This document shows, in pieces, positions 3,601 to 25,040 of a DNA stretch of 43,591 bases. How positions within the stretch are numbered: the first letter of the stretch is position 1; every line of letters begins with the position of its first letter. The notes under the pieces are model-generated. The model did no database searches and was not told the DNA's origin. It was given only the letters and a program-made list of their open reading frames with translations. The translations under genes were made by a program, and so were the position numbers. This DNA comes from a virus (taxonomy: Duplodnaviria > Caudoviricetes). The stretch spans positions 1 through 43,591 of IMG/VR virus record IMGVR_UViG_3300028588_000038, one strand, 5' to 3'.

Positions 3601-3779
3601 TACGCCACCTTCTCTTCGTTCGACCGAATAGCCAAGTAAAGCGCCACGACCCACAGAATCATGGTCCAGCCGCCAAAAAGATTGATGACGAACACGCCAC
3701 CACGACGCCCCTTGCGCGCAATCCAAGTTGGCGCAAAGTAAGCGATGAAAATAAGTGCTGCGTAGATAAATGGTTCCAT
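3600..3779 (-). CDS. imm: Superinfection immunity protein, T4 Imm family (59 aa; absent from ORF track)
   Basis: MEPFIYAALIFIAYFAPTWIARKGRRGGVFVINLFGGWTMILWVVALYLAIRS matches the YFxPTxIA...NLFxGWT..W..AL signature; ACAGGGAGA RBS. Confidence 0.85.
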   Translation of the reverse strand: MEPFIYAALIFIAYFAPTWIARKGRRGGVFVINLFGGWTMILWVVALYLAIRSNEEKVA

Positions 3780-3796
3780 TCTTCTCTCCCTGTCGG

Positions 3797-3868
3797 TTAT
3801 TTCTTCTTGCCAGTGACCACGAGGATCACCAGCACTATGGTTACGATAACAATCCCTGCTTCAATCAC
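3797..3868 (-). CDS. 23-aa hydrophobic peptide MIEAGIVIVTIVLVILVVTGKKK
   Basis: GTG start with AAGGA RBS; one TM helix with a basic tail; fills the gap. Confidence 0.4.
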   Translation of the reverse strand: MIEAGIVIVTIVLVILVVTGKKK

Positions 3869-19990: not shown

Positions 19991-20337
19991 GCCAGGAAAG
20001 CGAACAGTACCGCGTCGGCTTTGAAGCGTGGGCGCGTAGCAACGATATAACTGTGGGGCGCTACAGCGACGGCACGTATGTTGGCATGATCGAATGGGCG
20101 TGGAAATCGTGGTGCGCGTCAAAAAGCGAAGCCAACATTGGTGCTATTGCAGAAGTTCCACCACTGCCACAAGGATTAGGCGGTGGCCGATACATTTCGG
20201 CTGAAGATGCGCAGAAATATGGCGAGGCATGCTATCAAGCAGGATATCGCGATGGCAGTAAATCATGTGGCTTTACAGGCGATCCAACTACCATCCACAG
20301 CAGTACATTTAACCAAGGGGAAGAGAATGCCAAGTAA
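19987..20337 (+). CDS. Hypothetical protein
   Basis: GTG start; FEAWA...AWKSWCA motif common in phage early genes. Confidence 0.65.
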   Translation: MSQESEQYRVGFEAWARSNDITVGRYSDGTYVGMIEWAWKSWCASKSEANIGAIAEVPPLPQGLGGGRYISAEDAQKYGEACYQAGYRDGSKSCGFTGDPTTIHSSTFNQGEENAK

Positions 20338-22411
20338 CGAGAAGATGAGGAAAGCGATGGCAGAGGCTATCGCTGTGCTGCAAGCTGGGCTGGCCGAGGA
20401 TGAGCCGCCGGTGGTGACGCCGCCTGTTGTCGAGCCACCAGCGCCTGTGCCTGTGCCGCCAGTCGTTCAACCGCTGCCGCAGGAAAAGTCCATCACGCGC
20501 GTGATCGTGCAGAGCACCAGCGACAAGGTGCAGACGAACGTGCCGATCACCTTCGGTCAGGTGTTTGCTATCGGCGATCTGCCGGCTGGCAAAGGGCTGA
20601 AGGGCATGCAGTTGGACGTCAAGGCTACGCACCCTGACGGCTCGGTGCGGCATGCGGTGGTGTCGACGATCCTAGTGCAACTGGAGCATGGCAAAGATGT
20701 CACACTAGAGCTAGTTCCAGTGATCTCTGCGGCGCAAAAGCCAAGAAAGCTGATGCCACGGCAGTTTGTACTGGCGCGCTTCAGTGCAATCATTAATGGC
20801 TTCACATACGTCGCGGAAAGCGAGGCTAATGTCGAGAGTCTAGGGTGGCTGGCAGGCGAATTCGTAACCGAACTAGAATCGGCATCGCCCCTGATTGGCA
20901 CCGATGGAAAGCCGCACCCGCATTTGCACGCGAGTTTCGCTACCCGCTGCTACGATGAAGGTCGAGTGCGCGTCGATGTAGTGGTCGAAAACGACTGGGC
21001 CTACGAGCCTGCACCTCAGAACTTTACCTACGACGCCGTAATAGAAGTCGGTGGCAAGGTGGTGTACGAACAGAAGGCGATGAACCACTACCATCACTCG
21101 CGCTGGCGCAAGATTTTCTGGCATGGAGAAGAGCCGCAGGTGCACGTCAAGCACGACACCGCCTACCTGATCGCCAGCCGCGCGCTCCCGAACTACGACC
21201 AGTCCATCACCATTACGGAAAAGACGCTGGCCGACTGGGCTAAGCGTTGGGACAAGGCGCCGAAAGAACCGATGACGGTCGGCTTGTCCGTCAAGGGCAT
21301 GGCCATGACCGGCGGGCGCCCTGACATCGGCATCCTGCCGGCGTGGTCCGCACTGTACCTGCTGTCGATGGACAAGCGGCTCAAAGACGCCATGCTCGGC
21401 ACCGCCGATCTGGCTGGCACGTGGTCAATGCACTACCGCGACAAGAATACCGGCCAGCCGCTGAGTTTGATCGATTTCCCTTATATGACCGAAGTAGGCA
21501 CAAGCGGTGACGCGAAGAACCCGGTGACCAAGAAGTCGGAGAAAGCCCCATCGACAGTCAAGGGGCTTAACAAAACCCCTTTCAGCCACGATACCTCGCA
21601 CCAGCCAGGTTTCGCTTATCTGCCTTATCTTGTGACCGGGGATCGCTACTACCTGGATGAGTTGCAATCGTGGGCCATGTGGAACGTGTTCCAGTCGAAC
21701 CCGGGCTACCGTAAGAACATACAAGGCATCGTGTGGCGCGGCCAAGTACGTGGAACGGCCTGGACTCTGCGCACACTGGCCCAGTCCGCGTACATCACAC
21801 CCGACGGCGACCGTCTGAAGGAACACTTCGCTCGCATAATGAAATCGAACATCGACTATGGCATCGAGACCTTCGTTCGTGCGCCGACCGCAAACAAGAT
21901 CGGCATCTACACTGCGCCGGGTGCTGTGGTCTACCAGGACAAGACCGCCATCGGAACTTTCCAGGATGAGTTCCTGACCGCCGCCCTGGGCTACGTGGTT
22001 GAGCTCGGGTTCACCGAGGCGCTACCGCTGCTGGAGTGGAAAGCCAAGTTCGTCACCGAGCGGTTGCTGGGCGCGGGCACCAACTGGCTGGCTGCGGCCA
22101 ACTACACTTGGCCGGTGAAAGAGACCCCGGACGGGTCTGAGTTCACCACCATCGAGCAGGCGTATAAAGAACTGTATTCGCGTTTGAACGTCGGCACCGA
22201 TAAGGATGATGTAGCCGCTAGGAAGCGCCTCGACAGCGGCGGCAAGGACCTGGGGGGCTATCCGACGTCGCCTGAGGGCTTCCCGGCCAACATGCAGCCG
22301 GCTGCCGCGTACGCCGCCCAGTTCAACCCGGCAGTGTGGGCCAAGTTCGAATCGCGCGATCCGAAGCCCAACTACGGCACAGGCCCACAGTTTGCTATCG
22401 TGCCTCGCTAA
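20327..22411 (+). CDS. Large putative polysaccharide-lyase-like protein (PcRGLX/PL26-YetA-like architecture suspected)
   Basis: VPITFGQVF..GDL...QLDVKATHPDGSVRHAVVS N-terminal barrel; helical C-terminus with HQPGFAYLPYLVTGDRYYLDEL and QVRGTAWTLR; Pro-rich linker; GC-rich codons. Confidence 0.55.
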   Translation: MPSNEKMRKAMAEAIAVLQAGLAEDEPPVVTPPVVEPPAPVPVPPVVQPLPQEKSITRVIVQSTSDKVQTNVPITFGQVFAIGDLPAGKGLKGMQLDVKATHPDGSVRHAVVSTILVQLEHGKDVTLELVPVISAAQKPRKLMPRQFVLARFSAIINGFTYVAESEANVESLGWLAGEFVTELESASPLIGTDGKPHPHLHASFATRCYDEGRVRVDVVVENDWAYEPAPQNFTYDAVIEVGGKVVYEQKAMNHYHHSRWRKIFWHGEEPQVHVKHDTAYLIASRALPNYDQSITITEKTLADWAKRWDKAPKEPMTVGLSVKGMAMTGGRPDIGILPAWSALYLLSMDKRLKDAMLGTADLAGTWSMHYRDKNTGQPLSLIDFPYMTEVGTSGDAKNPVTKKSEKAPSTVKGLNKTPFSHDTSHQPGFAYLPYLVTGDRYYLDELQSWAMWNVFQSNPGYRKNIQGIVWRGQVRGTAWTLRTLAQSAYITPDGDRLKEHFARIMKSNIDYGIETFVRAPTANKIGIYTAPGAVVYQDKTAIGTFQDEFLTAALGYVVELGFTEALPLLEWKAKFVTERLLGAGTNWLAAANYTWPVKETPDGSEFTTIEQAYKELYSRLNVGTDKDDVAARKRLDSGGKDLGGYPTSPEGFPANMQPAAAYAAQFNPAVWAKFESRDPKPNYGTGPQFAIVPR

Positions 22412-22879
22412 CTAGCGCAGCGAATCGTAAGCAGCGTAGCAAGCCCTCAGGGCTTCTCGCTGCTCGTCGGCGTCTCTAGCGATCCCGAGAGCCACTGCTG
22501 CATCCTCTCGGTATAACTCTGCCCCAGTGGCGCCTTGGCAATTGGTGGTGGGACTGGACACTGAACCTGTGCTGGAGGGCCTTGCGGAACGGTTCTGCAG
22601 CCTGGCAATAGCAGCAGCACTGTCAGAGCGAATACGGGCGATTTCATTGGCTTTCTCCTGTTCAATCTGGCCGGCACGAGCAGACAAGCGTTGTTCTTCT
22701 TGGCGCGCGGCGACTTCATCTTTCACGCGCTGCACTTCGCGTTGCCGCAGTTCTTCGTTATACTGCGCCTGAATCTTGTCAATCTTGTGCACGTAGACAT
22801 AGCGCGTGCTCACACCGCCAGCAGCTACCCCGACAGCCAGACAAAGGGCAGCGATTGGCCAAGTTGGAATAATCTTCAT
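22412..22879 (-). CDS. Rz: Rz-like inner-membrane spanin
   Basis: N-terminal TM, coiled coil, C-terminal ADEQREALRACYAAYDSL. Confidence 0.85.
   Translation of the reverse strand: MKIIPTWPIAALCLAVGVAAGGVSTRYVYVHKIDKIQAQYNEELRQREVQRVKDEVAARQEEQRLSARAGQIEQEKANEIARIRSDSAAAIARLQNRSARPSSTGSVSSPTTNCQGATGAELYREDAAVALGIARDADEQREALRACYAAYDSLR
22447..22647 (-). CDS. Rz1: Rz1-like outer-membrane lipoprotein spanin fully embedded in Rz
   Basis: MKSPVFALTVLLLLPGC lipobox, Pro-rich CPVPPP, own AGGAG RBS, alternative frame. Confidence 0.85.
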   Translation of the reverse strand: MKSPVFALTVLLLLPGCRTVPQGPPAQVQCPVPPPIAKAPLGQSYTERMQQWLSGSLETPTSSEKP

Positions 22880-23034
22880 AAGGCCCTCACCTTAACGTGT
22901 TTGATGATCCTCGCAGCTATCTTCTCGCAATCCGGCTCCAACCCATGCAACGCTGCGAAGAAGCCACACATGCGAGCATACGGCATTGCCCACCAGGGGA
23001 GCGACAAGGTAACCGTAATGTTCTTCGCAGCCAT
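22876..23034 (-). CDS. 52-aa hypothetical protein in the lysis cassette
   Basis: MAAKNITVTLSLPWWAMPY...; starts right after the endolysin stop. Confidence 0.55.
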   Translation of the reverse strand: MAAKNITVTLSLPWWAMPYARMCGFFAALHGLEPDCEKIAARIIKHVKVRAL

Positions 23035-23035
23035 A

Positions 23036-23578
23036 TCAAACCCCCACTCGGTTAGCAATCCACCCGTATATGAATGCACGGTTAGCAGGCCGCGTCTCGG
23101 CCAGCTCAAAGTAGCGAGCACCCTGCAAACAATTCAAAGCACGGACCATGACTACTTCCCCCTCCGTGCCTCGGCGATTGAGGAATGACTTAAGGGCCAA
23201 GACGGTAGCTTGGCCTATCTTGCCATCTACGACCAATGGTTGAGCAGCGTCGTTAAAAAGGTTCAGTGCGCGCTGTAGCCACAGACCTGGCACGCCAACC
23301 CCCATGTTCACAGCGGTATCGAACAGCTCTTCGGCAATCGCAACGGAAAGCAGATGGATTTGATCGTACCCCGGCTTGATGAAATACTTGTCTCGGTAGA
23401 TTTTCTCGGCCAACCCGCGCGGAAGGTCTTGCATGCGACCGGTATAGCCGTTCTGGCGTGCGACTGCCTCCGTGATCCCAAAATTGGTGGAGCCACCCTT
23501 GTCGGCGGGATGGTTGCTGTATCCGCCTTCTTTGCGGATTACCTCATCGATCATCTGGTTGATGGTCAAGCGTGGCAT
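23036..23578 (-). CDS. Endolysin, glycoside hydrolase family 108 with C-terminal PG-binding domain
   Basis: EGGYSNHPADKGGSTNFGIT...FDTAVNMG...LQRALN...DGKIG..T...F.YGWIANR. Confidence 0.92.
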   Translation of the reverse strand: MPRLTINQMIDEVIRKEGGYSNHPADKGGSTNFGITEAVARQNGYTGRMQDLPRGLAEKIYRDKYFIKPGYDQIHLLSVAIAEELFDTAVNMGVGVPGLWLQRALNLFNDAAQPLVVDGKIGQATVLALKSFLNRRGTEGEVVMVRALNCLQGARYFELAETRPANRAFIYGWIANRVGV

Positions 23579-24048
23579 TATTGCGGGCTTTCTTCGCGGG
23601 GTGCAGCTGGAGGATCTTGGGTGGCGACAGTGGTATTCTTACCTAGTGCTTGAGCTACTCTAGGGAAGAAACCGTTGTTCAGCACCATATCAATAAATTT
23701 AGCATTACCTGCTCCGCCGAGGATTATGGCAAGGCAAGTTTGTGGCCAAGCCCATTCCCACCAAACTGCCACCAAGAAGAGGATGACACCGGCCAGCAGA
23801 GAGAAAATAACGTCTTTGATAATCTCTCCCCATACATTGATAATGATGACGGCGGGGTTGATTATTTTTGGAAGCGTGGCAGCCATGCCACCGAGAATAG
23901 AAAGTACGGCTACATAGCCAAGTGCTTTCAAAGGAATAGATTCGATACCTTCAGCGAATGAGAGATCGGCGGCGTATGCAATTCCAGCCCAGCAGAATAA
24001 TAGATAGACCCACAGTACGTGGTTTAGCTGGGTTTTCTGTGCCACCAA
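23578..24048 (-). CDS. Putative holin
   Basis: Multiple TM helices directly upstream of the endolysin. Confidence 0.65.
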   Translation of the reverse strand: MVAQKTQLNHVLWVYLLFCWAGIAYAADLSFAEGIESIPLKALGYVAVLSILGGMAATLPKIINPAVIIINVWGEIIKDVIFSLLAGVILFLVAVWWEWAWPQTCLAIILGGAGNAKFIDMVLNNGFFPRVAQALGKNTTVATQDPPAAPREESPQ

Positions 24049-24479
24049 AGTCTCCTTGATCTGTCTCCGGCATCAATAAAGGCGGCGACCATATTAGCTA
24101 TTGCCCACCAGTAGCATATTACCGCGACGGCAACCGGTTGACCAGTGACATCAGCTATTTGTGGTTGTGCACAATAGCAACCTGCAATTCCAACAAAAAG
24201 CCAATGTCGATTTTTCCAAATGTTTTCCCATCCAAGATTAAATGTAGCCTTGCCTAACCTTACACACGGCGGCGTCCAGTCGTTCACAAACAAATCTAGC
24301 CATAGCAGAACGCCAAGTATCCCAACTATCCAAATAATCAGACCGCCATCAGAGGTTCTGGACAATGCATGCAGAGTTGAAGTTGGATTTGACAGGGTGG
24401 TATACCAAGTAACTACTGCTTGGCCCCCAAGAAAGAATCGAACAAACGGCGACCAATGGTCTTGAAGTCTTCGCATCAC
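24024..24479 (-). CDS. Multi-pass membrane protein (lysis-associated)
   Basis: 3-4 hydrophobic segments; overlaps the holin start. Confidence 0.65.
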   Translation of the reverse strand: MMRRLQDHWSPFVRFFLGGQAVVTWYTTLSNPTSTLHALSRTSDGGLIIWIVGILGVLLWLDLFVNDWTPPCVRLGKATFNLGWENIWKNRHWLFVGIAGCYCAQPQIADVTGQPVAVAVICYWWAIANMVAAFIDAGDRSRRLWWHRKPS

Positions 24480-24865
24480 GGCATCCTATTTCGTAAGCTT
24501 GGTAGAAAGCCCTTAGAAAAGATGATGCAAGAGCAAAGCATTGCATATTCACAAAGCTTCACGAGGACACGGTACGGGCTTAACGGAGGGTGTCCGTCTA
24601 TATAGTACGCCATAACGTGCAAAGCGATCAGTACGGCAGCAATCTCAATAACAATTATGCTAGATCGAGTTTGCAGAAACACTGCGCCAACAATCACGCA
24701 TATCTCAGCCATGATGCAGTAGCCATAGAACTCAAAAGCCGAAGATCCTGGAATTGGTACGAATACGTTCGCACCAATTAAGATCGTCAGCGCTAGCATA
24801 CGCCAGTCGCGATAGTTGGCTATCAGGCCGGCACCAAGCAACACGACGTAGCTAGGAAAGAGCAT
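24476..24865 (-). CDS. Multi-pass membrane protein
   Basis: Almost entirely hydrophobic, 4-5 TM; starts 2 nt after the leader peptide stop. Confidence 0.7.
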   Translation of the reverse strand: MLFPSYVVLLGAGLIANYRDWRMLALTILIGANVFVPIPGSSAFEFYGYCIMAEICVIVGAVFLQTRSSIIVIEIAAVLIALHVMAYYIDGHPPLSPYRVLVKLCEYAMLCSCIIFSKGFLPSLRNRMP

Positions 24866-24867
24866 GG

Positions 24868-24981
24868 TTAAGGCTCGATAGGGGTTTGATCGTCGTCTTT
24901 GTTTGGCTCTTTGATTGGAGGTGGATCTTTTGGTGGCGGGTTGCCGTTGCCGGCGTCCGAGAACAGTTTGCGCTTCAGCAT
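24868..24981 (-). CDS. 37-aa polyproline peptide MLKRKLFSDAGNGNPPPKDPPPIKEPNKDDDQTPIEP
   Basis: TAGGAG RBS; follows a consensus promoter; absent from ORF track. Confidence 0.7.
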   Translation of the reverse strand: MLKRKLFSDAGNGNPPPKDPPPIKEPNKDDDQTPIEP

Positions 24982-25011
24982 GTTAGCTCCTAACAGGTTG
25001 GTGAGACTTGG

Positions 25012-25040
25012 ATTCTACGCAAGTGGTTTCTATTGGTCAA
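25012..25040 (-). promoter_or_regulatory. sigma70 promoter TTGACC-17-TAGAAT
   Basis: 5/6 matches at both hexamers with 17-nt spacing, starting right after the tail gene stop. Confidence 0.7.

Follow-up and report, generated by a model that had tools for sequence, protein, structure and literature searches.

Organization of the lysis region

The window, by which we mean the whole 43.6 kb stretch that was analysed, is a complete viral record that encodes a portal, a major head protein, a terminase and a tape measure. The best matches of its terminase are at about 53%, and neither an integrase nor a repressor was found among the 34 window ORFs scanned. On the minus strand, the tail region is followed by a promoter-like site, a TAGGAG ribosome-binding site, a 37-aa ORF, two membrane protein genes (TM1 and TM2), a holin gene, a GH108 endolysin gene and spanin genes. 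The peptide gene (24868–24981) is followed by TM1 (24476–24865, 129 aa), and the start of TM2 (24024–24476, 150–151 aa) overlaps the TM1 stop. TM2 matches phrog_20672 (E = 1e-4), which carries no functional name, and its structural model is poor (pLDDT 48.6, five sequences). The holin (23578–24048) was assigned by its match to the holin family phrog_6384 (E = 1.7e-9), the endolysin (23036–23578) by its Glyco_hydro_108 and PG_binding_3 domains, and the Rz-like spanin (22412–22879), which has an Rz1-like frame embedded in it (22447–22719), by a PHROG match. An 81-aa gene on the same strand (22876–23121, phrog_9557) lies between the endolysin and Rz genes and overlaps the end of the former. Converging on the cassette from the plus strand is a 742-aa ORF (20183–22411), large for a phage gene without assignment, which had no match in Pfam, PHROG, NCBIfam or PDB sequences. 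Two overlapping promoter-like matches on the plus strand within the holin gene (23816–23865; TTGATA-17-GATAAT, 10/12) aim antisense toward TM2 and TM1 and may be due to chance.

Among loci related to this one, the downstream genes vary. In family A, the family of TM1, the third position is held by TM2 in six loci, and most others have there a coiled-coil protein with one TM segment. A relative of the holin, in locus L005, matches the LydA-type Phage_holin_3_3 above cut-off. Endolysins are exchanged even among close relatives: L001 (5297–5797) and L002 (5300–5842) have near-identical cassettes with the same holin, followed by unrelated endolysins, as if one module had been swapped cleanly for another where the holin gene stops. 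In L003 (5288–6060), an insertion of about 770 nt parts the holin from the endolysin, relative to L004.

Promoter and leader of the peptide gene

A sigma-70-type promoter is predicted immediately past the stop codon of the tail-region gene that precedes it (25012–25040, minus strand), where TTGACC (25040–25035) and TAGAAT (25017–25012) are spaced by 17 nt and agree with the consensus at 10/12 positions; the site is also present in L001 and L002. The match by itself is at chance level, with 4 such sites found in 10 kb versus 6.0 expected. The promoter call is therefore based not on the match score but on the conservation of the -10-like hexamer among loci: of 33 partly related loci, 20 have it 15–75 nt ahead of the peptide start codon, against 7.3 expected from shuffled sequences, and within the window it precedes only 2 of 25 further genes on the minus strand. 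In L005 (about 3790–3815) and L006 (about 3775–3800), the last part of the upstream gene contains a promoter-like TTGACC...TACAAT, and the C-terminal sequence that this gene encodes remains similar.

The ribosome-binding site TAGGAG (24987–24992) is placed 5 nt ahead of the ATG at 24981, and TM1 starts at 24865, 2 nt past the peptide stop, with no Shine-Dalgarno-like run ahead of it. Because the two terminator-like hairpins of this region, in TM1 (24700–24683) and in the holin gene (23920–23907), are weak 5-pair stems and such hairpins are at chance level (9 found versus 10.7 expected), no convincing terminator precedes the holin and endolysin. The initial annotation had described the same promoter, ribosome-binding site and 37-aa peptide with NPPPK and DPPPI motifs, a membrane gene 2 nt downstream without a strong ribosome-binding site, and the lack of an intrinsic terminator, and each of these was recovered. 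The leader RNA folds no better than shuffled sequences (z = -0.88). It is C-rich (C/G 1.75 versus a mean of 0.93, equalled in only 2 of 184 late-gene windows), which would fit a Rho site, yet proline codons alone produce such a composition.

The peptide gene encodes a conserved core

Alignment of 21 peptides showed that G11, N12, G13, P15 and P16 are invariant and that, apart from these, only the start is. The family A core can be written as [AVT]GNG[NDE]PP; in the window peptide it reads AGNGNPPP (residues 10–17, 24931–24954, minus strand), and a six-frame search of the window finds GNG[NDE]PP nowhere else. The initial annotation had stressed the prolines, and this holds for the PP of the core; the full PPP is present in 21 of 26 distinct peptides and absent from five, and the second proline run, DPPPI, is not conserved. 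In the same 26 peptides, the distance from the last core to the stop codon ranges from 8 to 27 codons, and three carry two cores. The flanks are variable, acidic or basic, and conservation is limited to the core. Since core codons differ synonymously between loci, the protein sequence is what is conserved. The core is also found at the C-terminal end of longer ORFs ahead of TM1, in L175 (145 aa) and L177 (87 aa).

The 37-aa peptide had no match in Pfam, PHROG, NCBIfam or PADLOC. Inspection of the 21 aligned peptides by eye revealed no hydrophobic stretch that could serve as a signal peptide, nor is any leader or tail conserved among them, and no protease or exporter for the peptide was identified.

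TM1 is a predicted five-helix membrane protein

The AlphaFold (AF2) model of TM1 is a confident helical bundle (mean pLDDT 87) of five predicted hydrophobic helices (residues 3–16, 21–35, 43–64, 69–89 and 97–115). Across 124 distant clusters, position 54 is E or D in all, while H83, Y98 and E106 are kept in 118, 118 and 116, respectively. K/R-rich loops lie on the cytoplasmic side according to the positive-inside rule. The mean K/R content is 2.0 in loop 1, 1.15 in loop 3 and 2.9 in the C-terminal tail, as against 0.13 in loop 2 and 0.09 in loop 4, so that P37, F/W46, Y47, H83 and the SPY motif would lie on the periplasmic side. We infer that E54 and E106 are within the membrane and that a polar and aromatic pocket opens on the periplasmic side.

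Database searches did not name the protein. TM1 had no Pfam match at E ≤ 0.1, no PHROG, NCBIfam or PADLOC name, and no PDB match at E ≤ 0.001 in the fold search; its best VIA match (Z = 11.2) was to designed helical bundles and is within the chance range for bundles, matches in BFVD were weak (E ≥ 0.06), and a Caulobacter phiCbK fold match was not located. The atlas matches of TM1 (0.85) and TM2 (0.89) were unnamed viral clusters. Two candidate active sites were also considered. A cysteine peptidase is disfavoured, as C50 is a cysteine in only 88 of the 124 clusters, and the Cys-Arg-His triad, which is typical of exosortase-like proteins, was rejected because R99 varies.

The peptide gene and TM1 occur as a pair

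TM1 homologues were gathered by three protein searches and one full HMM search, the latter yielding the 124 clusters (50% identity, E ≤ 1e-3). The GNG[NDE]PP core was found in an ORF just ahead of TM1 in 35 of the 36 loci retrieved with TM1 queries, some of which are the same contig present in two collections; one of the 35 cores carries an extra N, and the single locus without a visible core begins 3 nt before the TM1 match. Searching from the other side with the core DNA pattern, we found that 15 of 21 viral matches were followed by a TM1 homologue at -4 to +5 nt. Among bacterial genomes this was the case for 2 of 120 matches, in a scan that covered 30 of 64 parts and in which 40 loci had only 300 nt flanks. 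MAG contigs of Ramlibacter and Novosphingobium contain family A cassettes. No match in cultured phages was obtained by tblastn with TM1, an L014 homologue or TM2, which leaves family A without a cultured member in the set searched. Taken together, the peptide–TM1 pair is conserved, and the lysis genes downstream are not.

A probably related family in cultured phages

A weak fold match (TM 0.70, E = 0.12) led to a protein of Edwardsiella phage PEi21. In the cassette of this phage, DAGGRGKTR is repeated three times in a 41-aa ORF, and the genes beyond it encode a membrane protein of 143 aa and a holin-like protein of 89 aa. The membrane protein belongs to phrog_15451 (family B), the loci of which share with family A the layout of a short Gly-core peptide gene ahead and a small membrane gene behind. 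Family B is present in 77–94 records of cultured phages, including phages of Klebsiella, Edwardsiella, Vibrio, Aeromonas and Erwinia, and the peptide gene is often unannotated there. An upstream peptide was found in 12 of the 13 cultured-phage loci examined. Its cores, GG[NRQ]G[KRQ]xR or DAGGxxVK (for example, GGNGKQR and DAGGRGKTR), occur in two to three copies in 7 of the 12 peptides, with one degenerate and one across a frame break, and PPP is absent from all 12. In the Iodobacter phage PhiPLPE locus L185, the two cores lie in different frames of the record (about 1340–1460) and two other ORFs are annotated in place of the membrane gene, possibly through a sequencing or annotation slip. The exception is Vibrio phage CP-T1 (L191, 1435–1863), which has the family B membrane and holin-like genes with no peptide upstream; its membrane protein is possibly an orphan receptor. 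In one clade the third gene encodes a two-TM, holin-like protein with weak holin matches only (E = 8e-4 to 0.03). In PEi21, which has a SAR endolysin, and in AeroV_348 the operon is divergent from the endolysin gene, and several cultured family B phages have no annotated lysis gene within 1.5 kb.

Profile comparison suggests that families A and B are probably homologous, with moderate support. Their profiles aligned over 66 columns with a probability of 75.5 and a score of 35.8, as against at most 1.3 and 17.5 for the reversed, block-shuffled and TM2 controls, and the alignment matched WY..C..E to YY..A..D, H..G to N..G, and SPY to PP..Y, family B having N or Q at the position of H83. With a widened family A profile, 10 of 13 family B proteins scored above the best of 273 decoys. 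Single sequences gave little: the window TM1 by itself reached 1.2 bits on the family B profile, with no phrog_15451 signal, A4 against the PEi21 protein alone gave a probability of 0.2, and comparisons of single members gave E values of 0.05–0.24. A viral scan with GGNGKQR returned 75 matches, 23 of which precede a multi-TM gene; the 21 distinct genes scored 59–155 bits on the family B profile and at most 8.6 on that of family A. Core type thus goes with the family of the putative receptor.

A candidate ligand–receptor module at the lysis genes

What emerges from these comparisons is an unnamed, widespread peptide–membrane protein module at phage lysis genes, whose function can be proposed from sequence. 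The core moves, repeats, varies with the receptor family and in family B needs no prolines, which favours a ligand–receptor module. The peptide is thus likely a ligand, the 37-aa product being its putative precursor, and TM1 is likely its receptor. This accords with one alternative offered in the initial annotation, a signal and receptor pair, which is better supported than the leader function it had put first. On balance we tentatively favour, while holding it somewhat short of probable, a module that tunes lysis by means of a peptide ligand without a leader, a receptor in the membrane and an effector on the holin side, the ligand possibly being a signal released when neighbours burst.

Such a module might work as follows. 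A host-type promoter would have the peptide and receptor made early. Since the peptide has no export signal and the conserved face of the receptor is predicted to be outside, the two would meet only once membranes open. The peptide could be released by neighbouring cells as they burst, being trimmed until small enough to cross the outer membrane, or could come from the same cell. With its ligand in place, the receptor would influence either the holin or the product of the third gene. The most likely effect is a delay of lysis where bursts among nearby infected cells have already been numerous, although the direction is a guess. Several observations count against parts of this scheme. A peptide of 25–45 aa should not pass porins untrimmed, the homology of families A and B is moderate, CP-T1 carries a membrane gene but no peptide, PP is invariant in family A, and several cultured phages have no annotated lysis gene nearby. 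A further point is that the third gene, through which the output may run, differs by clade (TM2, one-TM coiled coil or two-TM holin-like).

A bolder and rather doubtful extension is that phages of Gram-negative bacteria widely communicate by peptides. The leaderless, often multi-copy peptide would be stockpiled in infected cells and broadcast by lysis, neighbouring cells would read it with a five-helix receptor that faces the periplasm and represents a new family, and would postpone or advance holin triggering accordingly, and the GNGNPP, GGNGKQR and DAGGRGK cores would be family-specific dialects.

TM1 could instead be a membrane enzyme or exporter, in a role like that of AgrB, that cuts, modifies or exports the cores, the sensor being the product of the third gene or a host protein. 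E54, H83, Y98 and E106 could be catalytic or metal-binding, precursors with several cores would suit processing, and an exporter would account for the absent export signal. However, the candidate nucleophile C50 is often replaced, family B lacks the histidine, and the peptides have no conserved leader or tail, so that we regard this explanation as unlikely.

The initial annotation had proposed that lysis timing is coupled to host EF-P and Pro-tRNA status through the leader. In such a cis-acting scheme, a ribosome pausing at the prolines, or an arrest at GNG-PP, would set re-initiation at TM1 or the access of Rho. The invariant PP of family A, the tight gap to TM1, the lack of a Shine-Dalgarno sequence, the C-rich leader and the precedent of mgtL, as described in the available text of PMC12856214, all fit. 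A proline-stalling leader does not need the invariant GNG, however, which this scheme leaves unexplained and which weakens it; nor does it suit the loss of PPP in five family A peptides and in all family B ones, the variable distance from core to stop, the duplicated and mobile cores, the ordinary RNA fold, or operons that diverge from the endolysin. An EF-P leader is unlikely to be the main function, and cis regulation of any of these kinds seems quite unlikely.

Toxin–antitoxin, abortive-infection or superinfection-exclusion activity, in which the membrane is harmed or protected by TM1, or by the protein encoded after it, under restraint from the peptide, would agree with the host-type promoter, the small size of the membrane protein and the strict pairing. 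The cassette had no PADLOC match, though, the peptide is synthesized inside the cell whereas the conserved face is predicted to point outward, the genes persistently adjoin holin-like ones, and CP-T1 carries no peptide; we consider this improbable. Finally, TM1 could be a plain antiholin or holin accessory with the peptide as a fixed subunit or in-cell timer and no intercellular signal, as its position ahead of holin or holin-like genes and the tuning of holins by small membrane proteins in other phages (available text of PMC11657625) might suggest, but repeated cores and family-specific core variants are left unexplained and the probability is low indeed.

Comparison with known systems

The ligand–receptor module can be set against several characterized systems. 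AgrD and AgrB are a short precursor and a small membrane protein encoded side by side, AgrB having an invariant catalytic Cys-His pair. The module likewise combines a short precursor with a small membrane protein bearing conserved His and Cys. In contrast to AgrB, however, TM1 has no invariant Cys-His pair (C50 in 88/124, H83 in 118/124 clusters), and unlike AgrD, the peptide has neither an amphipathic leader nor a thiolactone cysteine. TM1 had no AgrB Pfam match at E ≤ 0.1, and its fold searches gave only generic bundles. No description of the module or its core motifs was found in the literature searched, mostly non-subscription papers without their supplements. The BSPM4 ORF52 protein, a 64-aa single-TM protein according to the available text of PMC11657625, is different from TM1.

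With mgtL-type leaders, as far as the available text of PMC12856214 describes them, the module shares a short proline-containing ORF heading the transcript and C-rich RNA. It differs in keeping a GNG protein motif that is repeated and mobile, in having related systems without PPP, and in that the next gene abuts the peptide stop with no untranslated switch region between; a pause site fixed relative to an RNA switch or downstream start, as in mgtL-type leaders, was not found.

The arbitrium system of Bacillus phages (AimP/AimR/AimX), in the portion of PMC11945551 available, resembles the module in its short phage peptide beside a receptor (a candidate one here), an early-type promoter and family-specific peptide cores. 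Arbitrium and other RRNPP systems differ in that the module peptide has no N-terminal signal peptide and its neighbour is a 129-aa membrane bundle without a Pfam match, not a soluble TPR-type RRNPP receptor; moreover, the hosts of the module are Gram-negative where known, and its neighbours are lysis genes rather than a lysogeny switch.

The proposed outcome is like the lysis inhibition of T4 (RI, RIII and the T holin) and N4, in which the holin is held back in response to phage density. Superinfection triggers that inhibition, and the available text of bioRxiv 10.1101/2025.11.12.688109 mentions no peptide ligand. No protein of the cassette matched the T4 or N4 antiholins in Pfam or PHROGs. 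Even if its action is confined to a single cell, the module would be an unnamed, widespread lysis-linked system for which a core motif is defined and pocket residues are proposed, and since family B occurs in cultured phages it can be tested now. So far, signalling by phage-made peptides has been described in Bacillus phages, and a few phages are known to sense superinfection and to delay lysis according to density. If the ligand–receptor reading is true, the module would unite both, since a peptide and its membrane receptor would be encoded beside the lysis genes in phages of Gram-negative bacteria.
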